From assembly GCA_047967505.1 (NCBI GenBank), contig CM106538.1: a DNA stretch of 64,000 nt. The stretch is one strand, 5' to 3'. This DNA is from Dipteris shenzhenensis. Lineage: Eukaryota. Position numbers and translations under genes: made by a program. Every line of letters begins with the position of its first letter. The stretch's first letter is position 1. Positions 28,290 through 59,389 of this stretch are shown here, piece after piece. The notes under the pieces are model-generated. The model made no database searches, was not told the DNA's origin, and worked only from the letters and a program-made list of their open reading frames with translations.

Positions 28290-28573
28290 CCCCTTTTTTT
28301 TCAACTTTAAAAAACAATACTTTTTTTAGAAGCTCACACCTTAAATTTTTGAAATAAAGTTCTGTCGAAGCTCGCACCCAACATATCTTGATGAACGCTA
28401 TGCATCTACTAAAGACTTGTACAAACATATATGACTGATAACTGAACCAGGTCACCAATAGTATGTTATCACATGTTTCTTCTCCATGGGACTGGAAGCC
28501 ACAGACAGTGGCTGCCTTAGATTTCAAGATCCCGAGCCATCCTCTAGAGCCCTAACCTACAAGAGGTTGGCTA
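28290..28573 (-). pseudogene. Old LINE ORF2 remnant, left half of the gypsy-complex target (continues at 59115-59380)
   Basis: A VAW..VT-like post-RT motif is readable on the minus strand in the right half. The two halves join through the GGCTA TSD. Confidence 0.4.
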
Positions 28574-29053
28574 TGTTAGCCCTCTCTACTCTGAAGACTA
28601 ACTCGAAACGCACTACTGCGACAGATTTACATGCGTAATCGAACTTCAGAACTGCGTATGAAAATTCATAGAGTAGAACAGTGATCGACAGAATCATTCA
28701 TGATAAAACAATAAGATAGATGCAATAGAATATCTGTATTACACTTCTCCGAGCAGTACAACACCGTACTCTCTGATACATAACAATGTTCCTCTTCTGA
28801 TCACACTGATCCTTGCTCCGATCCTCATCAATGAGCCCCCTGAATGATCGCTCTCTCTTCTCTTTTATCTAACCGGCACACATAACTCCTTCACGGTTGC
28901 CGTGACGGTTGCCGTGCCTCGTCAGTTCTCCGCCTGGTCCTAGAACTTCCGTCTTTTCATATCTCACTATAAACTAGATACAACGTATTAATGATAAAAT
29001 CTAAGGACTCCCCCCCTAGTTCCTCTTTGCTGTTGCTGCTTTTGCCCTTAACA
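28574..29053 (-). repeat. LTR1 (3' LTR of the outer element, 480 bp)
   Basis: TGTTA...TAACA ends; abuts the TSD. Confidence 0.95.
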
Positions 29054-29110
29054 CTTGGCACTCCCGGTGAATCGGATTCCGGATCCGCATCCGAACCCAC
29101 CGGTTCTCCG

Positions 29111-32100
29111 CTACGGTTCATCCTCGACGTCGCCACCGTCATCGTCCGCCACCGCCGCTGCTGCCGCTGGAACTGCTGGAGCCGCCGGCGCCGGTACTTG
29201 TACTGCCGGAGCCGCTTGCGCCGGTCGAAGTACAGGTAGCTGCTGCGGGTTGAGAGCATGGGCATCCACAAAAATTTGGAGCTGTCCATAGAAAGGTGGT
29301 GCCGCCGCCCCCGCCTGCTGAGCTACTGCCGCCATCCGATGAATATAGCGGCATGCTGTCCGCAGGTCGACCAACATAGCTGCTCTCTCAACATGACTCG
29401 TTCTCCGCAGCTGTTGTAGCTCCTCTTCATGCAGTCGGGTCTTCTCAGATAGAGCGAGTTCGAGATCGGTTACCCGCATACTGCGATCTGCTTTCTTCGC
29501 CACACCATCCAGTCGTTTCATTACCCGCCCCAATTCCTTGGTTTGGGCACCTGTTGATTGTTCTGCCGTAGTAGCTCTGATCTTCAGCAGATCTGCCATG
29601 AGGCTCTTCACCTCAACTTCATGTTGATGGTGCTCTTCTTTCCGGGCGAGCTTGAGTGCCAACAGCTGAGATCTGGCATCGTCACACTGCTGTTGCACCA
29701 CCGCGACGTGTTCTTTCAGCTGCAAAAAGTGCCTTGCGTCAAAGGATTCCCCGTCCGCTGGCAAAGCTGCCACAAAAGCGGCTGCTGCGTCCGCTTGGGG
29801 TCGTGGCTTCATTGCGGGAACCTGTGCGATCTCGGGTCTTTTTCCTCTGGCCTTCGCTCTTCGGAGGGCTTCTTCCAGTTCGGCGATCCGTTTGACATAG
29901 CCGTCGGAAGAATCCACCGGTCCCGCCGCTGTCTGCTTCCCGAGAGTATTTGCCGATGTAGAACTTCCACCCTCCAGTTGTGCCGCAGTTTCCGTCACCG
30001 GTACTGGTGGTAAAAATGCTGTTCCTGCGCCCCCTCCCGCCGGATCATCCTCATCCCTCCGGGCCAACCGTCGATCGAGAGGCCTGCAAGCCCGCTCCAG
30101 CTCTACTCGCAATTGACGTTGATGATCAAGAAAAATACCCTGCATCTCTGCGACGAAGGCTTCCGATAAATCCAACAAAAGTGCCTCGTCCAGCATGCGT
30201 GTAGAGCTAGAGGGTTGCCGGTACCCCATCACTTCCGCTTCCAACAACTGCACCCTGGCGGTCGCAGTTGTAGCCTTCTCCGTCAATTGTTCCGTCAGCC
30301 GCAGGTGTTCTTGAGTTTGGGCGACAATCGCCGTCCTTGCTTCCTCCATATCCTGCTGTCGCCGTGCATCCATCTGTTGGAATTGTAACAACTGCTCCTG
30401 CAGCTGTTGATTGCGTTCGAGCAGCCTGGCATTTTCCTGGCGCAACCTCGCCTCATTCTCCTCCAGCTGCCCCTTCTGAAAACATTGGAGCAAGCGCTCC
30501 GCCAACCGTCGTGCCGTGACCAGATCATATGTCTCCACCGGCGGAGATAGCTGCAGCTCACCACTCCCCCTTGGGACCACGGGTTTCCTCCTGACATGCC
30601 TGTCTCCCCGAACTGTCCTCCCGAGTGTGGACTGAGCTTTCCCCTTGCAAGGCCTCAGCGTCCGGGCGGGTTTTCTTCAACATTGCTCCTTCCGGCACAA
30701 GAGCCAACTTTCTTTTCAATAAACTGGCCATGCGGCTCGATGTTGCTGAGACCGCGGGCCTACTCCTCTGGCTGCCCTGTGGAACTTTTGCCGGAACCAC
30801 CACCGCAGGTACTATCGCCGTAACCTCCACCGCAGGTACTACCGGAGTCACCTGGTTCCTTGGCATCAGAGCTCCCTCCGTTGTTGATCTTGCTGGTTCC
30901 ACCTCCTTGGACTCCTTGTCCGAAGCATCGTCTGTGGACTCCTCCACCTCCACATACGACCCTGGGACTACCGGTTCCGCATCTGGTCCGAACAAAAGAA
31001 ATAAGACTTGCCCCATCCGGGATGTTGCCGTTGGCTTCAAGAGCTTCTTGGCCACCTCCAGAATTCTGTCCGCCATCAGCTTCGCCCAGGGAACCGGTTT
31101 CCCTTGCTCCGCCCTCTGGAAATAGGTAAACTGGGCCTGTCCCAGTAGCTCTGCTTTCACCTTCTGCCAGAGTGCCTCCGCAATAAACTTGTAGCATGTC
31201 TTCTGCGAAGCATCCAGCTTCTTCATGTTGTACTCCCCCTTGCAACCTGCGCCGAGAGCTGCCTCCATGGCACTGCTGGTAAGCTTCGTGACTTTGCATG
31301 GACCATCCACCGGCAAGTGCAACCGGGCCGCTACCAGCTCCTTGCACAAGGTGAAAGTCTTTCCATACACCACGACCTTGCGCCCGCGTGCAAGCTGCGC
31401 CAAGATATCTTGCGCCAATGGATGAACTGGTGTCGTAGCCCATGGCAAACCCGCGAACTCCACCAGACGAGCTCGTGTCAGCCAAGACTGCACAGCCTCA
31501 TCCCCAACAGGTAACGGATTGATCAGATGGAAGACCACCATAGCGGCGAGAAGCTGGGATGCGAGGGAGAAGAGTTCTGGAAAACAAAGAGTCGGAAATA
31601 AGCCCCCTTTTGCTTCCAAATTACCTTTTGGATGCCCTGGTGAACTCCTTGTTTGCATGCAACGATCAAGTGTCCCATCATCCTGATAAAAGCCCCACTT
31701 CGAAGATTCAGTAGATTGCATGGCGGCGTCCTCGATCCGCAACACGAAGCTTTGCTCCCACCGTTTCTCGGAATAAAGTGAGTGATACCACACGTGCGTA
31801 CTAATAGCCCCCATCATCGGTTTCTCCACCGAAATGGCTACAAATGCATTTGAAATGATCTTCATAGGTGGTATCTCCGGAAATGGGTAAGGTGGCATGG
31901 GCCCTGTATATGGTCGGAGACGAAATCCATTTACCGGCTTCTGCAACAGCTCCCCCTGTACTGTTCCTAATCGGAACGTGCCGTCACCATAACGCTCCAC
32001 CACCCAATACGGACCTCCCCACCGTAACTTCAGCTTACCCGGATGCGGACCCATCCGAGTGTTAAACAATATCACGGCATCTCTCCGTTTGAAGGTCTTC

Positions 32101-35100
32101 TTCTTTGAATGACGGTCCACCCAGACCTTCCGTCTGTCCTGGACTTACCTGTGCAAGATACGCACTGTTGAACCGCTCCTCACCCAGCCGATCCAGCTGT
32201 TCAATCCTCCGGTCTACGGACTCGTCCCAGCCCAATTTCTCTGCCGCTGCAATCCGCAGACTCGGTACTAGGAATTCCATGGGGACCACTGCTTCAACTC
32301 CGTAAACCAACTTGAATGGCGTGAACCCCGTCGCAACCTTATAGGAAGTCCGGAACGCCCATAATGCGGAGTAAAGTTTTTCATCCCAATCTGTCCGATT
32401 TTCATTGACCAGCTTTTTCAGAATGACTAGCAACACCTTATTCGAGGACTCCGCCTGTCCGTTTGCCTGAGGGTAATACACTGTGGACTTCTTATGAATG
32501 ATTAGGTGCCGGGTAACCAGTTCCCGTAACACCGCATTAAGGAAATGCCCACCTTGATCCGTGACGAGCTCAACCGGACATCCGTACCGTGTCATAATGG
32601 CTTCATAAAGGAATCTGGCCACAGCCTTTGCCGAATTATCCTTCAGTGCTCTGGCATCCACCCATTTGGTACAGTAATCCGTCGCCACCAGGATATACCG
32701 GTTACCTGTCCTCCTCGTCGGCGGCGAAAACGGACCTACAGAGTCCAGCCCCCACTTCATGAACGGTTCGAGGGCCAGTATGGGATTATGCGGCATCCGG
32801 TCCCGACCTGATGGCTGGCCCAACCTCTGGCACACATCGCATCTTTTGACGAACCTATGCGCATCCCCCATTAATGTTGGCCACCACAGACCTCCTTGGA
32901 GTACCTTCCGTCCGGTTACTTCTCCTGCGAAGTGTCCACCGCTGATTCCTTGGTGAGCCTCTTCCAGGATGACCTCCTGCTCATGTGGGTACACACACCG
33001 TCGCAACACACCATCTAGCCCCTGCTTATACAATTGGTCAGCAATGATCCGGAAGTCTCTGCTCTTGAGCGCGAGCCGTTTCCGCTGGTCTCGCGACATT
33101 CCGTCGCGCATCTGGCCCGTGTCGACAAAGTGAAACATGTCGTCGTACCACGTCTTTGGAGCTGCCGGTACCACCGCCTCCAGTTCGAACAGCTGGGCAT
33201 CCGGAAAATCGTCTTCCACACCCATCGGGTCTTCGCCAGATTCCAACCGTGAAAGGTAATCCGCTACGGCATGTGTACTTCCTGGTCGATGGACCACCGT
33301 GAAGTCGAACTCCTGTAAAAGCAGCATCCACCGGGCCAACTTTCCAGTGAGCTCGCGCTTGTGTACCAAATACAACAAGGCGGAATGATCCACATGAAAC
33401 GTGAACCGATTCCCCAACAGGTAGTGACGAAACTTTGTTACGGAATAAATCATCCCCAATGCTTCCCGCTCCGTCGTAGAGTAATTCCGTTCGGCTTTTG
33501 ACAACCTGCGACTTGCATAATACACCGGTCGGAACCACTTGCTTGTCGCTTCCTGCATGAGGACACTACCAATAGCCACGTCCGAGGCATCCACGAAGAC
33601 ATGAAACATCTTCGTCCAATCTGGCGGCTGAACCACCGGTGCTGTCGCCAACATCAGTTTGAGCCGTCGAAAAGCTAAGTCACAAACAGGAGACCAGACT
33701 ATCGGTACTTTGTTGAGTTGGTCATACAGTGGTGTCGCCACATCCGCCAGATACCGCAGCATTCGGCTGTGCCATTTAACCTGCCCTAGGAATCTCCCGA
33801 GCTGCTTACCGTTGCCAGGAACCTTGGCCTGCCGAATCGCTTCGACCTTCGCCGGATCTACCGCAATGCCTTCCGCCGAGATAATGCAACCCAGCAGCAT
33901 ACCGCTGCCCACGGCGAATGCACATTTCATAGGGTTCAGACACAACCGTGCCTCCCTACACCGGGTTAAGCATTTCTTCAGATGCTCAAGGTGCTGCTGG
34001 CGACTCCCGAAAACACTGAAATCGTCCAGAAATACCTGCATAAAGATTAGTAAATAATCATCAAATATTTCTTGGACCATGCGTTGAAATGTTGCCGGAG
34101 CATTCTTTAGCCCAAATGCCATCACCAGGAAAGCAAATGCTCCCCACTCCGTGATGAAGGCTGTTTTCTGTCGATCTTCTGGTGCCATCTGCACGTGGTT
34201 ATACCCACTGAAGCCATCCAGAAAAGAATACATCTCGTGACCTGCCACTGTATCCAGCATAGTATCATTAAACGGCAAGGGAAACGGATCCGTGATTGTC
34301 GCCGCGTTAAGCTTTCTGTAGTCAACACAGACCCGCAACTTCAAATTCTTTTTCGGAACAATCACTATTGGCGAAAGCCACGTTGCACGGTCAACCGGAT
34401 AGATAAACCCGACCTTTAGCAACCTGTCCAGCTCCTCCTTCACCCTCTGGGCATAGTTCGGGTTCATTCTATACCGTTGTTGCCGAACCGGTATCGCATC
34501 CTTCTGCAGATTGATCCTGTGCTGATAGAATTTGGGATCGATGCCGAGCAAATCTGTGTAGTCCCAGGCGAACACGTCTTTGAAGGATTTCAGCAATGTC
34601 TCCAATTTTCCCCGAAATCCTTTATCGAGCTTCGCACTGACACGGACGTTCTTTGGCTCCTCCTCCGTCCCGAGGTTAAGATCCAGCAGCTCGTCTTCTT
34701 TGACCCTCCGCGAGCGACGGAGTTCCTGCTCGAAAACTCTTTCCTCCTCCGCCACTCCCGCTTCGTCCGGCATGTCTCCTGTGCCTTCCGGTAGACTCCC
34801 TTCGACTGGTTCTTTCGTGGAACTGGATGACTCCTGCGTAGCCGAGGGAATCTGATGCTGATATTGCTTTAAAACGGCAACCACATCGACCTCGAACAAG
34901 CTTACCAGCTCCGTATTCCTACTGAATAGTCATCCTCCTCTTCGACCCCCATTCCGTCCATCATATGGATACCTTCCGCCATCGTCGGTCGGAATGGTGT
35001 CCTCAGTCCTTGTTTGGTATGTACCGAGAGCTTTAGCTTCTTTTTTCCTTTCCGAATGGTGATGCGGTCTGATTGCCAGTCTTGTTTCACACGGGCCTGC

Positions 35101-36489
35101 CGCAACCACGGTCTTCCGAGCAATAACGGGTATGACCCGCTAATATCCTCCATCCGGAGAATCACCGCAGCGATTTCGAACTTCACGCCGCAAACCTCCA
35201 TTTTCAATCCACGGAGCAATCCTAACGGCTGCACTCTCCGTTGGTCTGCCATCCGAACGGCGAAGGGTGCTGATTCCCATTTTGTGATACCCAATGGCAC
35301 CAGCATTTGTTCGGACAGGATGTTGACCCCAGACCCTCCGTCCAGCAACACCCCTCCCACACGGCTGTTCTCCAGTGTTACGGAAATTACCGGGACCGCT
35401 TCGTCAAAAACAGGAGGCTGTACTTCCGCTTCAGGCTTTGCAGATCCGTCTGACGACACTTCCATTGTTACCGCTTCCATCTCCGACTCCATCGCCCTGA
35501 CTGGTTTCGTCAATTGTTTGATGAGAGAACTCCGGAAATTGGGTACCAATGCTAACAATTGCTCCATTGTCATGTGTATTTGCTGTTTCCGCAAATCCTG
35601 CTATAAATCATATGGTTCAACACCCTCCTCGCCGGTCATCAGGCTGTCCTTCTGACTGGTAGGTAGACAAGTCGCTTCTGGCTGCTCTCCTTGCAGGCGC
35701 CTTGCCACCTTCGCACCATTCTCCGTCACCGAGACTGCCTTTTCCGCGCTCGGCCTAGGTAACACCGTTGGGGTTTTCTGGACCCATTCACCGACCGTCG
35801 ACCGCACCTTTTGTTGTGCCTGCCAGTCCAACGCCGTAGGTCTCCCCTTCTCTTGCGGGGCCTTGTATTCCCGCACCTTTTCCTGGGATCGTGTGACCAC
35901 GAGCACATCTCCGCTCGCACTTCCTCCCACTTTGCCTTCAACAGGGACACCCGCCGGTACTTCCGGTACTTCTTCGGACTTCGGACTAGGCTCCTTGCTA
36001 TCCTGTTGCTGACTGGCATCATCGCATTCGATAATCAGAACCGCATTCACTGCTGGTGCGGACTTGCCTTCTCCGGATCCCCGGGTTGCTTCCCTTTCCG
36101 CCTTGTGGCGCTTAAATAATTCGCAATCTACCTTTCGATGTCCGGGTTGATTGCAATAAAAACATAGGAACGTCCGTTCCCCGGCTGGTTCATCTGCACC
36201 TGTTCCAGCCGTTCTCGGCCGCCAAGGTCTTCTCGCCGGTGCGGCTGGTACCGCGGCTGGTGCTGCGGCTGGTGCCGCAACTACCGCCGCCACCGCTGGT
36301 GTCGGGGCTATTCGTGCGTTATAGCGGCAGATCTCCGTGGTATGCGTCGCTGTTTGGCAAATCGCACACCACCGCTCATTCAAACCGCATTCCTCTGCTA
36401 AGTGTCCTGCATTCCGGCACCGATTACACCAAGTATCCTTGCGAACTTTTGAAGAGGACCCTATTCCACTATCCCGGCTTTTGGCTCCG
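29111..36489 (-). pseudogene. Segment S1: mid-gag, PR, RT, RH, INT and C-terminal extension, disrupted
   Basis: ORFs 35601-36383, 34902-35594, 32062-34899, 30558-32120 and 29111-30580, separated by one stop and three frameshifts. Confidence 0.92.
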
Positions 36490-36523
36490 CCTCGAATAAG
36501 GTGTTGTACGTGACGTGTTGCTA

Positions 36524-37001: not shown

Positions 37002-37107
37002 CTTTGGCGACCACGGAAGATTTCCATGTTCGTCGCGGTGGATACCCCGGAGAGGTTGGATGCTCCCCATCTGTAATACTCTGATTCCTCGGTGCGTAGA
37101 CTAGCGC

Positions 37108-47869: not shown

Positions 47870-47926
47870 CGGAGAACCGGTGGGTTCGGATGCGGATCCG
47901 GAATCCGATTCACCGGGAGTGCCAAG

Positions 47927-48405: not shown

Positions 48406-48511
48406 CTTTGGCGACCACGGAAGATTTCCATGTTCGTCGCGGTGGATACCCCGGAGAGGTTGGATGCTCCCCATCTGTAATACTCTGATTCCTCGGTGCG
48501 TGGACTAGCGC

Positions 48512-51500
48512 ATGAATGACGCTGGGAGTGAGCCAGGGGGAACATCGCGCTCTCCGGAACGGCCTCGGGAGCCTGTAACTCCAGTATCGGCACGTACAAC
48601 CCGCGAGGAACGGCATGACAGATATGTGGCTCAACGTGATCTTCTCTTCGGCTTCTTCACGGATAGTGAGAGTAGTAGCCGCTCTGACACACCTCCGCTG
48701 ATCCCAGGAGAGGAAGGTCCAGTCGTTTCCGGTGTTCAGGAGGAAGGCGAATCCTCCGGACGCAGTAGCCCGTTCGATTTAACAAATACTCCTCCGGAAG
48801 ACGAAGCGTCACCGTTGCGAAATTCCCCACCACCGAGTCCCAGGAGACGGAGGGGTGGTGTGCCTGCAGGAAGCGGAGCCCCAGGTCCGTCACCAGATCC
48901 CGGTAGGGGAGGTGGAGGCGGTGGAGGCGGAGGCGGGGGTGGAGTTCCGGCGGTAAGTAGCGCGGCTATTCCACCACTGGTACCCAGGATGACGGTGAAG
49001 TACCCCAAGTTTTCGGGACGGGATAAGGAGGATGCGGATGCACATATACTGTCATTTGAGATGGCATGGATGGTGAATACGGCTCCACCAGTGCAGGCGA
49101 CAGATCTTATGAAGATGGCGACTTTCATCCCGACACTGCAGAAGCAGGCGGCAGTATGGATCGCGCAATATGGAGCTACCCATTTCGCCACGTTTGATCT
49201 ACTGCGGGATGCCTTTTTGCTTCGGTTTCGGGAGGACAAGACCCGTGTTCATGTCCTGGCCAAACTGGGGAGACTGGAACAGAAGAACCAACAAGTGGAG
49301 GCGTATGCGGCCAGGTTTCGGTCGTTGATCCGCCGCCTCGATGCAGCAACTACCCCGGCAGTCCCCATCCAAAATGCTTACTTCATGGAGGGGCTGATTA
49401 AAGGATTGAAAAGGTCCCTGGCATCGTTGGATCTGGAAGCTCTTTCATTGGAAGAAGTCGTCCAAGCAGCGGTGAGGGCGGAACAAGTTCTGTTTACTTC
49501 CAAGGGAAGGAAAGGAAAAGTGAAGTATGAGGAGGCTGAGGGAGACTCCGATACCGATAATGAGGAGGAGTCGGATCAGTCGGATGAGGAGGAGGACAAA
49601 CGTTCCATGAGGCGGAAGGCTGGAAAAGCGGCAGGGAAGTTATTTCCGGAAGGATCTGCTGCCGGAGCCAAAAGCCGGGATAGTGGAATAGGGTCCTCTT
49701 CAAAAGTTCGCAAGGATACTTGGTGTAATCGGACGTTCCTATGTTTTTATTGCAATCAACCCGGACATAGAAAGGTAGATTGCGAATTATTTAAGCGCCA
49801 CAAGGCGGAAAAGGAAGCAACCCGGGGATCCGGAGAAGGCAAGTCCGCACCAGCAGTAAATGCGGTTCTGATTATCGAATGCGATGATGCCAGTCAGCAA
49901 CAGGATAGCAAGGAGCCTAGTCCGAAGTCCGAAGAAGTACCGGAAGTACCGGCGGGTGTCCCTGTTGAAGGCAAAGTGGGAGGAAGTGCGAGCGGAGATG
50001 TGCTCGTGGTCACACGATCCCAGGAAAAGGTGCGGGAATACAAGGCCCCGCAAGAGAAGGGGAGACCTACGGCGTTGGACTGGCAGGCACAACAAAAGGT
50101 GCGGTCGACGGTCGGTGAATGGGTCCAGAAAACCCCAACGGTGTTACCTAGGCCGAGCGCGGAAAAGGCAGTCTCGGTGACGGAGAATGGTGCGAAGGTG
50201 GCAAGGCGCCTGCAAGGAGAGCAGCCAGAAGCGACTTGTCTACCTACCAGTCAGAAGGACAGCCTGATGACCGGCGAGGAGGGTGTTGAACCATATGATT
50301 TATGGCAGGATTTGCGGAAACAGCAAATACACATGACAATGGAGCAATTGTTAGCATTGGTACCCAATTTCCGGAGTTCTCTCATCAAACAATTGACGGA
50401 ACCAGTCAGGGCGATGGAGTCGGAGATGGAAGCGGTAACAATGGAAGTGTCGTCAGACGGATCTGCAAAGCCTGAAGCGGAAGTACAGCCTCCTGTTTTT
50501 GACGAAGCGGTCCCGGTAATTTTCGTAACACTGGAGAACAGCCGTGTGGGAGGGGTGTTGCTGGACGGAGGGTCTGGGGTCAACATCCTGTCCGAACAAA
50601 TGCTGGTGCCATTGGGTATCACAAAATGGGAATCAGCACCCTTCGCCGTTCGGATGGCAGACCAACGGAGAGTGCAGCCGTTAGGATTGCTCCGTGGATT
50701 GAAAATGGAGGTTTGCGGCGTGAAGTTCGAAATCGCTGCGGTGATTCTCCGGATGGAGGATATTAGCGGGTCATACCCGTTATTGCTCGAAAGACCGTGG
50801 TTGCGGCAGGCCCGTGTGAAACAAGACTGGCAATCAGACCGCATCACCATTCGGAAAGGAAAAAAGAAGCTGAAGCTCTCGGTACATACCAAACAAGGGC
50901 TGAGGACACCATTCCGACCGACGATGGCGGAAGGTATCCATATGATGGACGGAATGGGGGTCGAAGAGGAGGATGACTACTTCAGTAGGAATACGGAGCT
51001 GGTAAGCTTGTTCCAGGTCGATGTGGTTGCCGTTTTAAAGCAATATCAGCATCAGATTCCCTCGGCTACGCAGGAGTCATCCAGTTCCACGAAAGAACCA
51101 GTCGAAGGGAGTCTACCGGAAGGCACAGGAGACATGCCGGACGAAGCGGGAGTGGCGGAGGCGGAAAGAGTTTTCGAGCAGGAACTCCGTCGCTCGCGGA
51201 GGGTCAAAGAAGACGAGCTGCTGGATCTTAACCTCGGGACGGAGGAGGAGCCAAAGAACGTCCGTGTCAGTGCGAAGCTCGATAAAGGATTTCGGGGAAA
51301 ATTGGAGACATTGCTGAAATCCTTCAAAGACGTGTTCGCCTGGGACTACACAGATTTGCTCGGCATCGATCCCAAATTCTATCAGCACAGGATCAATCTG
51401 CAGAAGGATGCGATACCGGTTCGGCAACAACGGTATAGAATGAACCCGAACTATGCCCAGAGGGTGAAGGAGGAGCTGGACAGGTTGCTAAAGGTCGGGT

Positions 51501-53500
51501 TTATCTATCCGGTTGACCGTGCAACGTGGCTTTCGCCAATAGTGATTGTTCCGAAAAAGAATTTGAAGTTGCGGGTCTGTGTTGACTACAGAAAGCTTAA
51601 CGCGGCGACAATCACGGATCCGTTTCCCTTGCCGTTTAATGATACTATGCTGGATACAGTGGCAGGTCACGAGATGTATTCTTTTCTGGATGGCTTCAGT
51701 GGGTATAACCAGGTGCAGATGGCACCAGAAGATCGAGAGAAAACAGCCTTCATCACGGAGTGGGGAGCATTTGTTTTCCTGGTGATGGCATTTGGGCTAA
51801 AGAATGCTCCGGCAACATTTCAACGCATGGTCCAAGAAATATTTGAGGATTATTTACTAATCTTTATGCAGGTATTTCTGGACGATTTCAGTGTTTTCGG
51901 GAGTCGCGAGCAGCACCTTGAGCATCTGAAGAAATGCTTAACCCGGTGTAGGGAGGCACGGTTGTGTCTCAACCCTATGAAATGTGCATTCGCCGTGGGC
52001 AGCGGTATGCTGCTGGGTTGCATTGTCTCGGCGGAAGGCATTGCGGTAGATCCGGCGAAGGTCGAAGCGATTCGGCAGGCAAAGGTTCCTGGCAACGGTA
52101 AGCAGCTCGGGAGATTCCTAGGGCAGGTTAAATGGCACAGCCGAATGCTGCGGTATCTGGCGGATGTGGCGACACCACTGTATGACCAACTCAACAAAGT
52201 ACCGGTAGTCTGGTCTCCTGCTTGTGACTTAGCTTTTCGACGGCTCAAACTGATGTTGGCGACAGCACCGGTGGTTCAGCCGCCAGATTGGACGAAGATG
52301 TTTCATGTCTTCGTGGATGCCTCGGACGTGGCTATTGGTAGTGTCCTCATGCAGGAAGCGACAAGCAAGTGGTTCCGACCGGTGTATTATGCAAGTCGCA
52401 GGTTGTCAAAAGCCGAACGGAATTACTCTACGACGGAGCGGGAAGCATTGGGGATGATTTATTCCGTAACAAAGTTTCGTCACTACCTGTTGGGGAATCG
52501 GTTCACGTTTCATGTGGATCATTCCGCCTTGTTGTATTTGGTACACAAGCGCGAGCTCACTGGAAAGTTGGCCCGGTGGATGCTGCTTTTACAGGAGTTC
52601 GACTTCACGGTGGTCCATCGACCAGGAAGTACACATGCCGTAGCGGATTACCTTTCGCGGTTGGAATCTGGCGAAGACCCGATGGGTGTGGAAGACGATT
52701 TTCCGGATGCCCAGCTGTTCGAACTGGAGGCGGTGGTACCGGCAGCTCCAAAGACGTGGTACGACGACATGTTTCACTTTGTCGACACGGGCCAGATGCG
52801 CGACGGAATGTCGCGAGACCAGCGGAAACGGCTCGCGCTCAAGAGCAGAGACTTCCGGATCATTGCTGACCAATTGTATAAGCAGGGGCTAGATGGTGTG
52901 TTGCGACGGTGTGTGTACCCACATGAGCAGGAGGTCATCCTGGAAGAGGCTCACCAAGGAATCAGCGGTGGACACTTCGCAGGAGAAGTAACCGGACGGA
53001 AGGTACTCCAAGGAGGTCTGTGGTGGCCAACATTAATGGGGGATGCGCATAGGTTCGTCAAAAGATGCGATGTGTGCCAGAGGTTGGGCCAGCCATCAGG
53101 TCGGGACCGGATGCCGCATAATCCCATACTGGCCCTCGAACCGTTCATGAAGTGGGGACTGGACTTTGTAGGTCCGTTTTCGCCGCCGGCGAGGACAGGT
53201 AACCGGTATATCCTGGTGGCGACGGATTACTGTACCAAATGGGTGGAGGCCAGAGCACTGAAGGATAATTCGGCAAAGGCTGTGGCCAGATTCCTTTATG
53301 AAGCCATTATGACACGGTACGGATGTCCGGTTGAGCTCGTCACGGATCAAGGTGGGCATTTCATTAATGCGGTGTTACGGGAACTGGTTACCCGGCACCT
53401 AATCATTCATAAGAAGTCCACAGTGTATTACCCTCAGGCAAACGGACAGGCGGAGTCCTCGAATAAGGTGTTGCTAGTCATTCTCCGTACCGTGTCATAA
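48512..53500 (+). CDS. Segment S4: open gag-PR-RT-RH-partial INT ORF with a 246-nt in-frame gag deletion; truncated at the fold-back junction 53484
   Basis: 1662-aa ORF. Confidence 0.9.
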   Translation: MNDAGSEPGGTSRSPERPREPVTPVSARTTREERHDRYVAQRDLLFGFFTDSESSSRSDTPPLIPGEEGPVVSGVQEEGESSGRSSPFDLTNTPPEDEASPLRNSPPPSPRRRRGGVPAGSGAPGPSPDPGRGGGGGGGGGGGGVPAVSSAAIPPLVPRMTVKYPKFSGRDKEDADAHILSFEMAWMVNTAPPVQATDLMKMATFIPTLQKQAAVWIAQYGATHFATFDLLRDAFLLRFREDKTRVHVLAKLGRLEQKNQQVEAYAARFRSLIRRLDAATTPAVPIQNAYFMEGLIKGLKRSLASLDLEALSLEEVVQAAVRAEQVLFTSKGRKGKVKYEEAEGDSDTDNEEESDQSDEEEDKRSMRRKAGKAAGKLFPEGSAAGAKSRDSGIGSSSKVRKDTWCNRTFLCFYCNQPGHRKVDCELFKRHKAEKEATRGSGEGKSAPAVNAVLIIECDDASQQQDSKEPSPKSEEVPEVPAGVPVEGKVGGSASGDVLVVTRSQEKVREYKAPQEKGRPTALDWQAQQKVRSTVGEWVQKTPTVLPRPSAEKAVSVTENGAKVARRLQGEQPEATCLPTSQKDSLMTGEEGVEPYDLWQDLRKQQIHMTMEQLLALVPNFRSSLIKQLTEPVRAMESEMEAVTMEVSSDGSAKPEAEVQPPVFDEAVPVIFVTLENSRVGGVLLDGGSGVNILSEQMLVPLGITKWESAPFAVRMADQRRVQPLGLLRGLKMEVCGVKFEIAAVILRMEDISGSYPLLLERPWLRQARVKQDWQSDRITIRKGKKKLKLSVHTKQGLRTPFRPTMAEGIHMMDGMGVEEEDDYFSRNTELVSLFQVDVVAVLKQYQHQIPSATQESSSSTKEPVEGSLPEGTGDMPDEAGVAEAERVFEQELRRSRRVKEDELLDLNLGTEEEPKNVRVSAKLDKGFRGKLETLLKSFKDVFAWDYTDLLGIDPKFYQHRINLQKDAIPVRQQRYRMNPNYAQRVKEELDRLLKVGFIYPVDRATWLSPIVIVPKKNLKLRVCVDYRKLNAATITDPFPLPFNDTMLDTVAGHEMYSFLDGFSGYNQVQMAPEDREKTAFITEWGAFVFLVMAFGLKNAPATFQRMVQEIFEDYLLIFMQVFLDDFSVFGSREQHLEHLKKCLTRCREARLCLNPMKCAFAVGSGMLLGCIVSAEGIAVDPAKVEAIRQAKVPGNGKQLGRFLGQVKWHSRMLRYLADVATPLYDQLNKVPVVWSPACDLAFRRLKLMLATAPVVQPPDWTKMFHVFVDASDVAIGSVLMQEATSKWFRPVYYASRRLSKAERNYSTTEREALGMIYSVTKFRHYLLGNRFTFHVDHSALLYLVHKRELTGKLARWMLLLQEFDFTVVHRPGSTHAVADYLSRLESGEDPMGVEDDFPDAQLFELEAVVPAAPKTWYDDMFHFVDTGQMRDGMSRDQRKRLALKSRDFRIIADQLYKQGLDGVLRRCVYPHEQEVILEEAHQGISGGHFAGEVTGRKVLQGGLWWPTLMGDAHRFVKRCDVCQRLGQPSGRDRMPHNPILALEPFMKWGLDFVGPFSPPARTGNRYILVATDYCTKWVEARALKDNSAKAVARFLYEAIMTRYGCPVELVTDQGGHFINAVLRELVTRHLIIHKKSTVYYPQANGQAESSNKVLLVILRTVS

Positions 53501-56500
53501 TGGCTTCATAAAGGAATCTGGCCACAGCCTTTGCCGAATTATCCTTCAGTGCTCTGGCCTCCACCCATTTGGTACAGTAATCCGTCGCCACCAGGATATA
53601 CCGGTTACATGTCCTCCTCGCCGGCGGCGAAAACGGACCTACAAAGTCCAGCCCCCACTTCATGAACGGTTCGAGGGCCAGTATGGGATTATGCGGCATC
53701 CAGTCCCGACCTGATGGCTGGCCCAACCTCTGGCACACATCGCATCTTTTGACGAACCTATGCGCATCCCCCATTAATGTTGGCCACCACAGACCTCCTT
53801 GGAGTACCTTCCGTCCGGTTACTTCTCCTGCGAAGTGTCCACCGCTGATTCCTTGGTGAGCCTCTTCCAGGATGACCTCCTGCTCATGTGGGTACACACC
53901 GTCGCAACACACCATCTAGCCCCTGCTTATACAATTGGTCAGCAATGATCCGGAAGTCTCTGCTCTTGAGCGCGAGCCGTTTTCGCTGGTCTCGCGACAT
54001 TCTGTCGCGCATCTGGCCCGTGTCGACAAAGTGAAACATGTCGTCGTACCACGTCTTTGGAGCTGCCGGTACCACCGCCTCCAGTTCGAACAGCTGGGCA
54101 TCCGGAAAATCGTCTTCCACACCCATCGGGTCTTCGCCAGATTCCAACCGCGAAAGGTAATCCGCTACGGCATGTGTACTTCCTGGTCGATGGACCACCG
54201 TGAAGTCGAACTCCTGTAAAAGCAGCATCCACCGGGCCAACTTTCCAGTGAGCTCGGGCTTGTGTACCAAATACAACAAGGCGGAATGATCCACATGAAA
54301 CGTGAACCGATTCCCCAACAGGTAGTGACGAAACTTTGTTACGGAATAAATCATCCCCAATGCTTCCCGCTCCGTCGTAGAGTAATTCCGTTCGGCTTTT
54401 GACAACCTGCGACTTGCATAATACACCGGTCGGAACCACTTGCTTGTCGCTTCCTGCATGAGGACACTACCAATAGCCACGTCCGAGGCATCCACGAAGA
54501 CATGAAACATCTTCGTCCAATCTGGCGGCTGAACCACCGGTACTGTCGCCAACATCAGTTTGAGCCGTCGAAAAGCTAAGTCACAAATAGGAGACCAGAC
54601 TATCGGTACTTTGTTGAGTTGGTCATACAGTGGTGTCGCCACATCCGCCAGATACCGCAGCATTCGGCTGTGCCATTTAACCTGCCCTAGGAATCTCCCG
54701 AGCTGCTTACCGTTGCCAGGAACCTTGGCCTGCCGAATCGCTTCGACCTTCGCCGGATCTACCGCAATGCCTTCCGCCGAGATAATGCAACCCAGCAGCA
54801 TACCGCTGCCCATGGCGAATGCACATTTCATAGGGTTCAGACACAACCGTGCCTCCCTACACCGGGTTAAGCATTTCTTCAGATGCTCAAGGTGCTGCTT
54901 GCGACTCCCGAAAACACTGAAATCGTCCAGAAATACCTGCATAAAGATTAGTAAATAATCATCAAATATTTCTTGGACCATGCGTTGAAATGTTGCCGGA
55001 GCATTCTTTAGCCCAAATGCCATCACCAGGAAAACAAATGCTCCCCACTCCGTGATGAAGGCTGTTTTCTCTCGATCTTCTGGTGCCATCTGCACCTGGT
55101 TATACCCACTGAAGCCATCCAGAAAAGAATACATCTCGTGACCTGCCACTGTATCCAGCATAGTATCATTAAACGGCAAGGGAAACGGATCCGTGATTGT
55201 CGCCGCGTTAAGCTTTCTGTAGTCAACACACACCCGCAACTTCAAATTCTTTTTCGGAACAATCACTATTGGCGAAAGCCACGTTGCACGGTCAACCGGA
55301 TAGATAAACCCGACCTTTAGCAACCTGTCCAGCTCCTCCTTCACCCTCTGGGCATAGTTCGGGTTCATTCTATACCGTTGTTGCCGAACCGGTATCGCAT
55401 CCTTCTGCAGATTGATCCTGTGCTGATAGAATTTGGGATCGATGCCGAGCAAATCTGTGTAGTCCCAGGCGAACACGTCTTTGAAGGATTTCAGCAATGT
55501 CTCCAATTTTCCCCGAAATCCTTTATCGAGCTTCGCACTGACACGGACGTTCTTTGGCTCCTCCTCCGTCCCGAGGTTAAGATCCAGCAGCTCGTCTTCT
55601 TTGACCCTCCGCGAGCGACGGAGTTCCTGCTCGAAAACTCTTTCCGCCTCCGCCACTCCCGCTTCGTCCGGCATGTCTCCTGTGCCTTCCGGTAGACTCC
55701 CTTCGACTGGTTCTTTCGTGGAACTGGATGACTCCTGCGTAGCCGAGGGAATCTGATGCTGATATTGCTTTAAAACGGCAACCACATCGACCTCGAACAA
55801 GCTTACCAGCTCCGTATTCCTACTGAAGTAGTCATCCTCCTCTTCGACCCCCATTCCGTCCATCATATGGATACCTTCCGCCATCGTCGGTCGGAATGGT
55901 GTCCTCAGCCCTTGTTTGGTATGTACCGAGAGCTTCAGCTTCTTTTTTCCTTTCCGAATGGTGATGCGGTCTGATTGCCAGTCTTGTTTCACACGGGCCT
56001 GCCGCAACCACGGTCTTTCGAGCAATAACGGGTATGACCCGCTAATATCCTCCATCCGGAGAATCACCGCAGCGATTTCGAACTTCACGCCGCAAACCTC
56101 CATTTTCAATCCACGGAGCAATCCTAACGGCTGCACTCTCCGTTGGTCTGCCATCCGAACGGCGAAGGGTGCTGATTCCCATTTTGTGATACCCAATGGC
56201 ACCAGCATTTGTTCGGACAGGATGTTGACCCCAGACCCTCCGTCCAGCAACACCCCTCCCACACGGCTGTTCTCCAGTGTTACGGAAATTACCGGGACCG
56301 CTTCGTCAAAAACATGAGGCTGTACTTCCGCTTCAGGCTTTGCAGATCCGTCTGACGACACTTCCATTGTTACCGCTTCCATCTCCGACTCCATCGCCCT
56401 GACTGGTTCCGTCAATTGTTTGATGAGAGAACTCCGGAAATTGGGTACCAATGCTAACAATTGCTCCATTGTCATGTGTATTTGCTGTTTCCGCAAATCC

Positions 56501-58542
56501 TGCCATAAATCATATGGTTCAACACCCTCCTCGCCGGTCATCAGGCTGTCCTTCTGACTGGTAGGTAGACAAGTCGCTTCTGGCTGCTTTCCTTGCAGGC
56601 GCCTTGCCACCTTCGCACCATTCTCCGTCACCGAGACTGCCTTTTCCGCGCTCGGCCTAGGTAACACCGTTGGGGTTTTCTGGACCCATTCACCGACCGT
56701 CGACCGCACCTTTTGTTGTGCCTGCCAGTCCAACGCCGTAGGTCTCCCCTTCTCTTGCGGGGCCTTGTATTCCCGCACCTTTTCCTGGGATCGTGTGACC
56801 ACGAGCACATCTCCGCTCGCACTTCCTCCCACTTTGCCTTCAACAGGGACACCCGCCGGTACTTCCGGTACTTCTTCGGACTTCGGACTAGGCTCCTTGC
56901 TATCCTGTTGCTGACTGGCATCATCGCATTCGATAATCAGAACCGCATTCACTGCTGGTGCGGACTTGCCTTCTCCGGATCCCCGGGTTGCTTCCCTTTC
57001 CGCCTTGTGGCGCTTAAATAATTCGCAATCTACCTTTCGATGTCCGGGTTGATTGCAATAAAAACATAGGAACGTCCGTTCCCCGGCTGGTTCATCTGCA
57101 CCTGTTCCAGCCGTTCTCGGCCGCCAAGGTCTTCTCGCCGGTGCGGCTGGTACCGCGGCTGGTGCTGCGGCTGGTGCCGCAACTACCGCCGCCACCGCTG
57201 GTGTCGGGGCTATTCGTGCGTTATAGCGGCAGATCTCCGTGGTATGCGTCGCTGTTTGGCAAATCGCACACCACCGCTCATTCAAACCGCATTCCTCTGC
57301 TAAGTGTCCTGCATTCCGGCACCGATTACACCAAGTATCCTTGCGAACTTTTGAAGAGGACCCTATTCCACTATCCCGGCTTTTGGCTCCGGCAGCAGAT
57401 CCTTCCGGAAATGACTTCCCTGCCGTTTTTCCAGCCTTCCGCCTCATGGAACGTTTGTCCTCCTCCTCATCCGACTGATCCGATTCCTCCTCATTATCGG
57501 TATCGGAGTCTCCCTCAGCCTCCTCATACTTCACTTTTCCTTTCCTTCCCTTGGAAGTAAACAGAACTTGTTCCGCCCTCACCGCTGCTTGGACGACTTC
57601 TTCCAATGAAAGAGCGTCCAGATCCAACGATGCCAGGGACCTTTTCAATCCTTTATTCAGCCCCTCCATGAAGTAAGCATTTTGGATGGGGACTGCCGGG
57701 GTAGTTGCTGCATCGAGGCGGCGGATCAACGACCGAAACCTGGCCGCATACGCCTCCACTTCTTGGTTCTTCTGTTCCAGTTTCCCCAGTTTGGCCAGGA
57801 CATGAACACGGGTCTTGTCCTCCCGAAACCGGAGCAAAAAAGCATCCCGCAGTAGATCAAACGTGGCGAAATGGGTAGCTCCATATTGCGCGATCCATAC
57901 TGCCGCCTGCTTCTGCAGTGTCGGGATGAAAGTCGCCATCTTCATAAGATCTGTCGCCTGCACTGGTGGAGCCGTATTCACCATCCATGCCATCTCAAAT
58001 GACAGTATATGTGCATCCGCATCCTCCTTATCCCGTCCTGAAAACTTGGGGTACTTCACCGTCATCCTGGGTACCAGTGGTGGAATAGCCGCGCTACTTA
58101 CCGCCGGAACTCCACCCCCGCCTCCGCCTCCACCGCCTCCACCTCCCCTACCGGGATCTGGTGACGGACCTGGGGCTCCGCTTCCTGCAGGCACACCACC
58201 CCTCCGTCTCCTGGGACTCGGTGGTGGGGAATTCCGCAACGGTGACGCTTCGTCTTCCGGAGGAGTACTTGTTAAATCGAACGGGCTACTGCGTCCGGAG
58301 GATTCGCCTTCCTCCTGAACACCGGAAACGACTGGACCTTCCTCTCCTGGGATCAGCGGAGGTGTGTCAGAGCGGCTACTACTCTCACTATCCGTGAAGA
58401 AGCCGAAGAGAAGATCACGTTGAGCCACATATCTGTCATGCCGTTCCTCGCGGGTTGTACGTGCCGATACTGGAGTTGCAGGCTCCCGAGGCCGTGCCGG
58501 AGAGCGCGATGTTCCCCCTGGCTCACTCCCAGCGTCATTCAT
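53484..58542 (-). pseudogene. Segment S5: complete gag (three CCHC knuckles)-PR-RT-RH-partial INT; 2-bp deletion near 53895
   Basis: ORFs 53884-58542 (1552 aa) and 53478-53915. Confidence 0.9.
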
Positions 58543-58648
58543 GCGCTAGTCTACGCACCGAGGAATCAGAGTATTACAGATGGGGAGCATCCAACCTCTC
58601 CGGGGTATCCACCGCGACGAACATGGAAATCTTCCGTGGTCGCCAAAG

Positions 58649-59114
58649 TGTTAGCCCTCTCTACTCTGAAGACTAACTCGAAACGCACTACTGCGACAGA
58701 TTTACATGCGTAATCGAACTTCAGAACTGCGTATGAAAATTCATAGAGTAGAACAGTGATCGACAGAATCATTCATGATAAAACAATAAGATAGATGCAA
58801 TAGAATATCTGTATTACACTTCTCCGAGCAGTACAACACCGTACTCTCTGATACATAACAATGTTCCTCTTCTGATCACACTGATCCTTGCTCCGATCCT
58901 CATCAATGAGCCCCCTGAATGATCGCTCTCTTCTCTTTTATCTAACCGGCACACATAACTCCTTCACGGTTGCCGTGCCTCGTCAGTTCTCCGCCTGGTC
59001 CTAGAACTTCCGTCTTTTCATATCTCACTATAAACTAGATACAACGTATTAATGATAAAATCTAAGGACTCCCCCCCTAGTTCCTCTTTGCTGTTGCTGC
59101 TTTTGCCCTTAACA
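58649..59114 (-). repeat. LTR4 (5' LTR of the outer element, 466 bp); PBS at 58636-58645
   Basis: Abuts the TSD. By eye it differs from LTR1 only by a 12-bp and a 2-bp indel. Confidence 0.95.
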
Positions 59115-59389
59115 GGCTACATAACAGCAAGCTTTCGCCCCATTTGAGGCACCCTCATTGTAACATCCCAGTGCCAAGCTACTTCACAACGCCCTTGGGT
59201 TCATCCTATAGAGCAGAGCAGAGGGAAAGAGCACATGATCTTTGTGTTTTAGAGACACCAAGACTCCAGTCAAAAGCCCCGCCCAGAGGAAATACTCATG
59301 GCCTCCACCAATGGAGCATATGAAGAAAGCTTAGTTGCAAATTATGAACCCCCATCAGCCTCAAAATAATTCGAACGAGGAGCTGCTGC

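Follow-up and report, generated by a model that had tools for sequence, protein, structure and literature searches.

Capture of reverse-transcribed DNA at chromosomal breaks is known from classical work on yeast Ty1. Complex arrays of LTR retrotransposons are usually attributed to nesting and post-insertion recombination. Complexes produced by a single integration are recognised by their target-site duplication (TSD), intact outer ends and near-identical outer LTRs, and each case described by Sabot and Schulman in 2007 is a dimer, joined head to tail, in which three LTRs accompany two complete cores (PMC1950507). Iterative template switching is proposed as the mechanism of the DUP-TRP/INV-DUP rearrangement (PMC11293582), particles contain partial LTR-retrotransposon cDNAs with defined ends, including cPPT-bounded linear intermediates (PMC7197481), and the reported cDNA captures concern short fragments at unrelated breaks (PMC4516963, PMC11372161). 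Mu killer is an inverted partial duplication of the DNA transposon MuDR with a hairpin RNA and demonstrated silencing (PMC3440606).

Layout and identity of the insertion

A 64,000-nucleotide stretch of Dipteris shenzhenensis DNA (assembly GCA_047967505.1, contig CM106538.1), called here the window, was compared with itself by self-blastn, from which the layout was derived. Two GGCTA repeats enclose 30,541 bp, or 3.16 unit lengths, in keeping with the ~3.2 copies in one TSD announced in an earlier note on this DNA. Between them lie five partial copies (S1 to S5) of one Ty3/gypsy element of ~9.65 kb, successively on the minus, plus, plus, plus and minus strands. The features are the following.

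28569..28573, unstranded: left target-site duplication GGCTA, directly abutting the outer LTR
28574..29053, minus: LTR1, outer 3' LTR, 480 bp, TG...CA
28574..36489, minus: S1, element ~1735-9651, late gag to 3' LTR
36490..36523, plus: J1 filler, 34 bp, templated
36524..37001, plus: LTR2, inner 5' LTR, without its first 1-3 bases
36524..42618, plus: S2, element positions 1-6095
42619..42625, plus: J2, 7 nt equal to element 6101-6107 after a 5-nt skip
42625..48405, plus: S3, element ~3878 to 3' LTR
47927..48405, plus: LTR3, common to S3 (as 3' LTR) and S4 (as 5' LTR)
47927..53484, plus: S4, element 1-5806, 246 bp deleted in frame
49730..49732, plus: J3, the 246-bp deletion (S2 38328-38573 missing) at a 3-nt CGG microhomology
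53324..53484, plus: fold-back spacer, 161 nt, single-copy, element 5646-5806
53485..59114, minus: S5, element 1-5645, 5' LTR to mid-integrase
58649..59114, minus: LTR4, outer 5' LTR, 466 bp, TG...CA
59115..59119, unstranded: right target-site duplication GGCTA, directly abutting the outer LTR

This layout is confirmed in the sequence, every block named previously being recovered. Inverted matches pair 36524-42168 with 59113-53484 and 28574-34348 with 48405-42625. A direct match of 3,910 bp at 99.3% identity (32581-36489 versus 53484-57391) corresponds to the ~3.9 kb said earlier to be duplicated around the inverted block; the outer element halves, S1 and S5, overlap by 3.9 kb. The 17-kb block is indeed inverted but is not a single copy: it is a composite of S2, then S3, then S4, in which 2.2 kb are directly duplicated, two pieces are joined in tandem through a common LTR, and the 246-bp deletion is found. 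Expressed in element positions, its path runs from 5806 to 1, through an LTR, from 9171 to 3878 and from 6107 to 2, and because this path is not colinear with one element a tandem, circular or cDNA template is required. Neither a TSD of its own nor a complete inner element was found in the inner block, which ends within integrase on one side and on the other at an eroded LTR terminus behind the templated patch. We tentatively regard the locus as a real single-site complex of one Ty3/gypsy family.

Pfam matches to gag, zinc knuckle, RT, RNase H and integrase place the element in Ty3/gypsy. In S4 and S5 the domains follow the order Retrotrans_gag/Ty3_capsid, zf-CCHC, RVT_1, RT_RNaseH, Integrase_H2C2 and rve, and S3 carries RT through integrase. 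The gag-(protease)-RT-RNase H-integrase order of this group was thus found on one strand, together with direct TG...CA LTRs, a 5-bp TSD and, 3 nt downstream of each 5' LTR, an identical TGG-initiated stretch which we take to be the PBS. S3 has a single open frame (42605-47869) and S4 an open frame at 48509-53500; the frame of S1 is interrupted at several places. The outer LTRs are co-oriented and, as described before, separated by two small indels only (12 bp and 2 bp; 0 mismatches and 2 gaps in 480 columns). LTR2 differs from either of them by at most 1 substitution. LTR3, of which the PPT side and the PBS side are both normal, differs from the other three LTRs by 6-7 substitutions, and two of its private alleles were also detected in contigs of runs X1 and X2. 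The qualification "young" given earlier to the element suits the outer LTRs only, the internal copies being 0.37-1.28% divergent. The family is very abundant, with a summed word depth in the thousands in run X3. The flanks of the insertion are TE-rich, with copia, hAT-like and LINE fragments.

Junctions between the pieces

The filler of J1 consists, in order, of 17 nt equal to element 5779-5795, 8 nt of unclear origin and a copy of element 5790-5800, in which the final 2 nt (GT) coincide with the beginning of LTR2. Since these 2 nt are ambiguous with the templated patch, the shortfall of LTR2 is given as 1-3 bases; the LTR at 36524 is truncated as had been reported, by one base or up to three. 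Of the five occurrences of the 17-mer in the window, where chance predicts 0, four are at the homologous position of the element. The donor region of the filler (element 5779-5800) is situated 6-27 nt from the right flip breakpoint at 5806, and the end of S4 at 5806 is the only copy of this stretch situated at a DNA end; by chance, a donor would fall no further than 30 nt from any of the six other break-ends with a probability of ~0.037. Because the filler was copied from beside the right flip breakpoint, the left and right flips look coupled. The template switching proposed in the earlier note is directly indicated by this patch, which copies both 5779-5795 and 5790-5800 next to the 5806 breakpoint. 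Furthermore, LTR2 stops 1-3 nt from the true LTR terminus (chance ~0.007 for any of the 8 break-ends), which suggests the free end of a linear cDNA.

At J2, the last G is common with the start of S3 (1-nt microhomology) and the path jumps back to element ~3878, generating the 2.2-kb duplication (40401-42618 matches 42625-44842). Record 1 of run X1 continues through the J3 point without the deletion. At J4 (53484/53485), where the inverted match joins 49730-53323 to 57078-53484, the microhomology is 0-1 nt, and at J1 it is 2 nt. Judged from their sequences, with microhomologies of 0-3 nt, the 5-nt skip of J2 and the templated patches of J1, the junctions are of the end-joining or template-switch type. 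Self-blastn of the window revealed no inverted repeat outside the rearrangement itself, and no pre-existing one mediates a junction.

Two further origins were rejected. An ordinary nested insertion made by integrase, already dismissed in the earlier note, is excluded by the mid-integrase end, the LTR lacking 1-3 nt with its 34-bp filler, the missing duplication and the 3.9-kb overlap of the host halves. An autointegration inversion product shares only the J1 topology, and its intact terminus, filler-free join and partner junction are absent.

A purely chromosomal MMBIR of the DUP-TRP/INV-DUP type, working on the resident element, the sister chromatid or dispersed copies and involving no cDNA, appears very unlikely. 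It would account for the duplication / inverted middle / duplication layout with two flips in cis and for junctions with microhomology or templated patches, and a homology-driven switch between LTRs could have made the shared LTR3. However, the junctions have no pre-existing inverted repeat pair, the defining feature of the human rearrangement (PMC11293582); a chromosomal template should continue into the flank instead of stopping 1-3 nt from an LTR terminus; and at least two haplotypes are present. The earlier idea of such a rearrangement confined to one element is not supported, given the same absence of a mediating repeat and the same haplotype number, and its strict form does not fit because the inverted block crosses a shared LTR and is non-colinear with a single element.

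Variants among the pieces

The substitutions private to one copy (n = 73) comprise 55 transitions and 18 transversions, 43 of them being G>A or C>T. Their mean density is 0.31% per copy; they show no strong clustering, and the lowest value is that of S1 (0.18%, against 0.36-0.43% for S2 and S4). These transition-rich changes indicate ageing in place. The shared sites with incompatible partitions (n = 11) comprise 3 transitions and 8 transversions and differ in this respect from the private ones (Fisher p = 0.003). Ten of the 11 are biallelic and fit two parental haplotypes, S1 being one and S4 nearly the other, and column 4228 has three alleles. Being rich in transversions and in part found in other family copies, the shared sites indicate that more than one template was used, and the five segments carry at least two template haplotypes. 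Gene conversion among closely spaced copies could also be a source of shared sites. With the near-terminal LTR end, the alleles common with other family copies strengthen the option of several cDNAs raised earlier.

Among the 40 listed differences between run contigs and the window (136 more exist), 10 fall on substitution columns between segments, and the polarisation of variants is limited to the few listed sites of this kind. At these 10 columns the contigs of other copies carry another segment's private allele in five cases (S2 twice, LTR3/S4 twice, S5 once), an allele common to S2 and S4 in one, and the majority allele in the other four. S5 is identical to S1 at columns 2088 and 2131, the first two informative ones after 1735, and differs only from column 3110.

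A stepwise history, in which several insertions of the same family into or beside each other were followed by unequal recombination, illegitimate deletions and inversion, the single TSD being that of the oldest element, is unlikely. The TE-rich flanks, the abundance of the family in run X3 and the distance of LTR3 from the other LTRs agree with such a history, and recombination after insertion commonly makes shared-LTR tandems (PMC1950507). On the other hand, inner TSDs and a complete inner element are absent, the 3.9-kb overlap of the outer halves is impossible by nesting, the template of the J1 patch lay next to the J4 breakpoint, and the segments do not differ significantly in their load of private mutations (p = 0.098), which fits one age.

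An assembly artefact, arising from chimeric or fold-back long reads or from mis-joined family members of different loci, seems decidedly improbable. Inverted copies 99% identical are difficult to assemble, and no contig from four runs, all of individuals other than the source, bridges J1, J2 or J4 (the best run has 2 Mb and contains 0.44 of the sampled words). A fold-back read should give identical arms after polishing, whereas the arms here are 0.4-1.3% apart with a transition bias; those of J4 differ at 24 of 3,597 and 21 of 1,806 positions, in addition to the 246-bp deletion. Mis-joins driven by homology would be colinear, but J1, J2 and J4 are non-homologous and one of them has serial templated patches. 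The path also returns to the outer element in the right orientation with the TSD intact, and the window contains zero N. On the sequence evidence, both the divergence of the arms and the templating at a junction speak against an artefact of fold-back reads.

Routes of formation and comparison with known systems

As leading explanation we favour, with reserve, one event of repair or copying from several templates within or near a single element, probably with free reverse-transcribed DNA. A normally integrated element X would have consisted of S5 to ~1734, S1 from 1735, LTR4, LTR1 and the GGCTA duplication. A break in its gag at 1734/1735 would have been repaired by copying instead of simple rejoining: one broken end would be extended on a homologous template to 5645, would jump onto the opposite strand at 5806 (J4, 0-1 nt microhomology) and would copy a template of one-LTR topology back to ~3878, giving S4, LTR3 and S3 in reverse. 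After a jump to ~6107 (J2), S2 would be copied back until its template ended 1-3 nt from the LTR terminus, at the free end of a linear reverse-transcription product. After two abortive short copies beside the first jump site (5800-5790 and 5795-5779), the strand would be captured at 1735 by the remaining broken end (J1). Extrachromosomal cDNA intermediates or other family copies would have served as templates, hence the presence of at least two haplotypes, and the five pieces would later have aged in place at a similar rate.

The layout, junction sequences, templated patch, near-terminal LTR end and two variant classes are directly visible, whereas we infer the order of the steps, the polymerase and a timing after rather than before integration. 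The templated filler, the near-terminal stop of LTR2, the composite nature of the inner block and the two variant classes are new with respect to the earlier reading. Against the break-repair route, the private density is lowest in S1, a piece expected to rank with the oldest; this objection is weakened by the partly source-derived "private" load of S2 and S4. As S5 diverges from S1 only from column 3110, the break point is not pinned down, and a mirror version, broken at 5645/5646 instead, agrees just as well with the data. The argument from the nearness of the donor depends on p ~0.04.

Alternatively, a partly inverted multimeric cDNA of 30.5 kb may have been assembled first, by RT or by nuclear end-joining of several cDNAs, and integrated once; we consider this possible although rather improbable. 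It would extend the "template-switching complex" of Sabot and Schulman to inverted pieces. Synthesis would jump, at the end of each template, between the plus- and minus-strand intermediates that two co-packaged RNAs had yielded, and the whole molecule would be inserted by integrase with a single GGCTA duplication. The one TSD, the intact TG...CA outer ends and the outer LTRs free of substitutions are in agreement with this assembly, as are the end of LTR2 at a natural cDNA terminus, the S3-LTR3-S4 arrangement, which matches a plus-strand transfer product in its one-LTR topology, the two parental haplotypes fitted by 10 of 11 shared sites and the seemingly equal age of all pieces. Plant VLPs contain internal-PPT-bounded linear intermediates and inverted cDNA forms (PMC7197481). 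A GAAAAAG motif, with only three sense-strand occurrences in the element, directly precedes the start of S3 and another directly follows the end of S4; this coincidence is weak (Monte Carlo chance 0.04-0.13) and the real 3' PPT is unlike the motif. Moreover, 3.2 unit lengths should be far beyond the particle capacity expected for a 9.65-kb genome, the complexes described in print are co-oriented tandem dimers (PMC1950507), and column 4228 has its third allele. In one form of this assembly, likewise rather improbable, the whole structure would be one aberrant reverse-transcription product inserted once by integrase, RT having copied displaced plus-strand intermediates 3' to 5' and jumped whenever the template ended, which would yield a trimer, inverted in part, whose U3 and U5 termini are correct. 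If so, an integrated inverted multimeric LTR-retrotransposon cDNA would be recorded here in nature for the first time, and the insertion would have formed a hairpin locus from the outset, capable of silencing the very abundant family to which it belongs.

Within the structure, an element that seems to have been active recently forms a palindrome of 5.6 kb. A transcript from LTR4 would form a hairpin with a stem of ~5.4 kb, which could feed silencing of this very abundant family; transposon palindromes are a structure type known to start silencing, as in Mu killer (PMC3440606). If real, the locus is a natural footprint of reverse-transcription products in multi-step copying or repair, in a eukaryotic genome where one gypsy family is very abundant, and links three fields: aberrant retroelement strand transfer, cDNA-templated break repair and replicative complex rearrangements. 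Its distinctive traits are the single TSD, the inverted pieces, the patch copied from beside the other breakpoint and the piece ending at a cDNA terminus.

Like the complexes of Sabot and Schulman (PMC1950507), the locus has more than one copy in a single 5-bp TSD, highly similar outermost LTRs (0 substitutions, 2 indels) and an internal LTR common to two internal regions. Instead of two complete co-oriented tandem cores with one internal LTR, it has four LTRs, and its five cores are all partial; the three in the 17-kb middle run opposite to the two outer ones, LTR sharing is restricted to S3/S4, and the joins are non-homologous, one with templated patches. As in DUP-TRP/INV-DUP (Grochowski et al. 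2024, PMC11293582), a duplicated interval stands on both sides of an inverted block (36524-53484) with two flips in cis, but the flips show 0-1 nt (J4) and 2 nt (J1) of microhomology in place of a pre-existing inverted-repeat pair, the block lacks colinearity with the reference unit, and the templates comprise at least two haplotypes. As in the autointegration "inversion circles" (Lee et al. 2020, PMC7197481), an LTR terminus abuts an inverted internal position at J1; integrase-made joins are described there as exact with a short duplication, unlike the filler and eroded terminus of J1, and those products are non-integrated circles, unlike this integrated complex. J4, inverted with a 161-nt spacer and hardly any microhomology, resembles the fold-back inverted duplications reported by Hermetz et al. 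2014 (PMC3907307), although a chromosomal fold-back would mirror the flank past LTR4 and here the arm enters LTR3 and a further element copy. Retrotransposon cDNA inside a repaired break recalls the captures reported in PMC4516963 and PMC11372161, from which the locus would differ by ~21 kb in three pieces, a break in a homologous element and homology-driven extension on one side. With Mu killer (PMC3440606) it shares an inverted transposon duplication and a potential long hairpin transcript, here of an LTR retrotransposon and predicted from sequence. The locus is a variant of the known complex LTR-retrotransposon insertions.

Structure of the complex and its surroundings

The window was compared with itself to derive the segment layout, taking as ruler the plus-strand copy which starts at 36524 (e1; e-numbers are element positions in a unit of ~9,651 bp). 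This self-comparison reproduced the layout of the earlier note, a duplication, an inverted 17-kb block and a second duplication. The inverted block is indeed present but had been under-described, since it is itself composite, being made of three segments (S2, S3 and S4) with a common LTR. The parts of the complex are as follows:

28574-36489, minus strand: segment S1, e9651 down to e1735
36490-36523: filler of junction J1, 34 bp
36524-42618, plus strand: segment S2, e1-6095
42619-42625: join of junction J2, 7 nt
42625-48405, plus strand: segment S3, e~3878-9651
47927-48405: LTR3, serving both S3 (as 3' LTR) and S4 (as 5' LTR)
47927-53484, plus strand: segment S4, e1-5806
53485-59114, minus strand: segment S5, e5645 down to e1

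The complex is 30,541 bp long, corresponding to 3.16 unit lengths. Its outer LTRs (LTR1 and LTR4) have TG...CA ends, each directly adjoined by GGCTA, and differ from each other by two indels (12 bp and 2 bp) and no substitution. The 5' flank of the 3' LTRs and the 3' flank of the 5' LTRs show no differences among the copies possessing them. Pfam domains of gag/Ty3 capsid, zinc knuckle, RT, RNase H, integrase zinc domain and integrase core were found in gypsy order. An ordinary nested insertion is excluded: an inner TSD and an inner element in complete form are both lacking, and the two outer halves have 3.9 kb of overlap. A length polymorphism of the LTR, a 12-bp tandem duplication, is present in LTR1 and absent from LTR4 (28886-28912 versus 58962-58976); in a contig of another sequencing run, X1, 12 nt are inserted at the corresponding point of the inner LTR2 (36660).

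In S3, S4 and S5 the reading frames remain largely open. After the integrase core, the open frame continues for ~1,120 codons with no Pfam match (44504-47869, plus strand, and the same region in S1; best hit E = 0.26). Taken together, S4 (48509-53500) and S3 (42605-47869) suggest one frame of ~2,800 codons running from gag to just before the 3' LTR.

As evidence for an empty site was sought, the flanks of the complex were found to have no paralogue within the window, and the left flank does not match the right one. The left-flank copia similarity ends at ~26500, and in both copia elements the similarity ends after the integrase. DUF659 is typical of hAT-like transposase-derived proteins. The flanking features are:

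4533-5242, 10674-12284 and 24231-26558: two copia elements, related to each other and degraded (domains Pol_BBD, gag_pre-integrs, rve and SH3_retrovirus)
13391-14995, plus strand: open frame of 534 codons, strongly matching DUF659 (E = 4.7e-43)
59411-59903: C/T-rich array of imperfect 21-47-bp tandem repeats, starting ~300 bp right of the insertion site
61813-62397 and 63129-63518, plus strand: LINE-like fragment of the right flank with weak endonuclease/exonuclease/phosphatase and RVT_1 matches

Junctions

At J1, the first 17 nt of the filler are an exact copy of e5779-5795. This 17-mer has five occurrences in the window, one within the filler and the other four at the homologous position of the element, for a chance expectation of none. 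After an 8-nt core follows an 11-nt copy of e5790-5800, whose terminal GT is shared with the LTR2 start, and because of this overlap LTR2 is without its first 1-3 bases. No convincing donor was found for the 8-nt core; a 7-mer match to it close to the S5 break could be chance. The filler is not a PPT or tRNA remnant, as it does not match the sequence upstream of the 3' LTR.

At J2, S2 runs to e6095, skips 5 nt, continues for 7 nt more (e6101-6107) and meets S3 at e~3878 with 1 nt in common, yielding a 2.2-kb direct duplication. At J3, 246 bp (S2 38328-38573) are absent from S4 with a 3-nt microhomology, and the reading frame across this deletion is still open. The first record of run X1, a contig of another family copy, carries undeleted sequence across the J3 point. 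An apparent joint of opposite strands in X1 (36419/49732) turned out to be ordinary element continuity across two differently oriented copies, and indicates only that the 246-bp gap of S4 is a deletion. At J4, S4 stops at e5806 and passes into antisense sequence from e5645, the two sides sharing 0-1 nt, which leaves a 161-nt single-copy spacer (53324-53484) between arms of ~5.6 kb. Snap-back self-priming was rejected here, pairing being possible for 1 nt only.

The J4 break-end, e5806, is 6-27 nt away from the stretch e5779-5800 that served as donor of the J1 patch, and the three remaining copies of this stretch are at least 4 kb from every junction. Since the chance of finding a donor at most 30 nt from any of the six other break-ends is ~0.037, J1 and J4 look like products of one event. 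Furthermore, one break-end is within 3 nt of a natural LTR terminus (chance for any of the 8 break-ends ~0.007). At this LTR2 end, copying of a chromosomal template would continue into the flank, whereas a free linear cDNA would just stop there. The inner block is not one circle unit with terminal redundancy, as ruled out by its ends: beyond e5800, its right end is normal element sequence and its left end is LTR2.

That the complex could be an assembly artefact appears very unlikely from these joins and from the arms that they connect. Fold-back reads would make identical arms, whereas those of the complex differ by 0.4-1.3% and by the 246-bp deletion. Homology-driven mis-joins are colinear, whereas the joins described here are non-homologous, one of them with serial templated patches. 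The path also re-enters the outer element in the correct orientation and the TSD is intact. Among the contigs of runs X1-X4 over 35001-55000, none crosses J1, J2 or J4, which speaks neither for nor against the junctions; the best run represents 2 Mb and 0.44 of the sampled words. Seventeen runs were compared, many of them air metagenomes, and apart from the best one each reached at most 0.19. The complex is a single locus of the assembled sequence.

Sequence variation and templates

Pairwise differences among segments range from 0.37 to 1.28% (comparisons of at least 400 nt) and no pair is exceptional. Private sites were scored where at least three segments overlap. The 73 private substitutions comprise 55 transitions and 18 transversions (43 of the 73 are G>A or C>T), with a density per segment of 0.14-0.43% (mean 0.31%). 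Neither the heterogeneity of this load among segments (p = 0.098, not significant) nor the clustering of the sites, which is weak (largest-gap test, p = 0.048 for S2 and p > 0.2 for S1, S4 and S5), is pronounced, and the pattern looks like ageing in place after one event. The absence of substitutions between LTR1 and LTR4 is compatible with the private-site rate (2.85 expected, P = 0.058). RIP-like or editing hypermutation was ruled out, the changes being evenly spread over the copies and not strongly clustered.

The 11 sites common to at least two segments show mutually conflicting partitions and a spectrum (3 transitions, 8 transversions) unlike that of the private sites (Fisher p = 0.003). 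S1 and S4 act as two nearly pure haplotypes, S2, S3 and S5 being mosaics of both. LTR3 differs at 6 sites from LTR2 and from LTR4 and at 7 from LTR1, and is a member of the second haplotype. S1 and S3 show 7 differences within 130 alignment columns (6362-6492; S1 ~31730-31860, S3 ~45110-45240), a locally divergent patch located after the integrase region, which fits a recombinant origin of one of the two.

The sole outgroup was provided by differences between contigs and window (40 places listed, with 136 further ones beyond these). Among the listed places, 10 fall on columns with substitution differences between segments. At 5 of these 10, the contigs of other family copies bear an allele private to another segment (S2 twice, LTR3/S4 twice, S5 once); at one they bear the allele common to S2 and S4, and at four the majority allele. 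The X1 contig concerned has at least 8 further differences from every segment and is therefore another family member. Segment alleles being found in other family copies, part of the variation already existed in the family, and the sequences indicate two or more templates for the segments rather than the multiplication of a single chromosomal element.

Other sources gave no outgroup. An exact 23-mer conserved in S1-S5 had 0 loci in viral contigs and 0 in metagenome contigs. A protein-based metagenome scan gave 597 relatives from 605 pattern matches; the 80 loci kept are only 36-70% identical in protein; they belong to other families and are of no use in polarising variants at the 1% level. In the protein database there were 16 hits, none above 38% identity.

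Formation of the complex and comparison with known systems

The earlier note had proposed template switching, either as DUP-TRP/INV-DUP-like repair synthesis or as the joining of several cDNAs. In the strict form of a DUP-TRP/INV-DUP rearrangement of one element, the former is excluded. The inverted block follows the path e5806 to e1, through the LTR, e9171 to 3878, then e6107 to e2, an order that a single chromosomal element could not template, and the complex contains two haplotypes. In addition, no junction is mediated by an inverted repeat pair, the feature stressed for human DUP-TRP/INV-DUP (PMC11293582).

We tentatively favour, at just short of an even chance, a break in a resident element repaired by synthesis on reverse-transcription products of the same family. 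A normal element would have sat at the site, which would account for the TSD and for outer LTRs that match. A break in it, at e1734/1735 or in the mirror case at e5645/5646, would have been repaired by synthesis on homologous family cDNA, with three template jumps (J4, J2 and J1). At LTR2, copying would then have reached the end of a linear cDNA template and run off it, followed by two abortive re-primings next to the first jump site, and the strand would have been captured by the other broken end via end-joining. A stepwise history is quite unlikely, and a purely chromosomal replicative event is the least probable of all; neither agrees as well with the linkage of the junctions, the LTR terminus or the evenness of the ages.

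In the main rival, these jumps precede integration: reverse transcriptase, or joining in the nucleus, would produce one multimeric, partly inverted cDNA with proper termini, to be inserted once by integrase. In its favour, the one-LTR topology of S3-LTR3-S4 is that of a plus-strand transfer product, and both ends of S3-LTR3-S4 adjoin GAAAAAG, a motif with only three sense-strand sites per element (40395-40401, 42330-42336, 47130-47136 and homologous positions); the first lies directly before the S3 start and the second directly after the S4 end. These may be internal plus-strand primer sites bounding S3-LTR3-S4, or a coincidence, and are treated as a lead only because the Monte Carlo chance is 0.04-0.13. 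Plant VLPs, according to one report (PMC7197481), hold linear intermediates bounded by internal polypurine tracts and inverted cDNA forms. On the other hand, 3.2 unit lengths argue against a particle-borne product, and we regard this rival as possible but unlikely. It would extend the 'template-switching complexes' of Sabot and Schulman (PMC1950507), which are single-TSD structures and tandem dimers only.

In at least one further sequenced organism the family reaches very high abundance (run X3, 4,570 contigs, summed word depth in thousands). Fragments of the family were also seen in many air metagenomes (runs X3-X15, compared with 35001-55000). Both observations suggest that the host has a large genome and that its pollen or spores are airborne.

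In the open-access literature searched, no description was found of an LTR-retrotransposon complex that has one TSD and an inverted block inside it. Shared-LTR complexes within one TSD, fold-back inversions, cDNA capture at breaks and iterative template switching are already in print; the combination of one TSD, an inverted composite block, a patch from beside the other flip and a cDNA terminus appears to be undescribed. A transcript driven by LTR4 would run through e1-5645 in sense and then from e5806 to e1 in antisense, and is predicted to form a hairpin with a ~5.4-kb stem and a 161-nt loop. In this respect, the complex recalls the structure of Mu killer (PMC3440606), the hairpin being here a prediction from the sequence.
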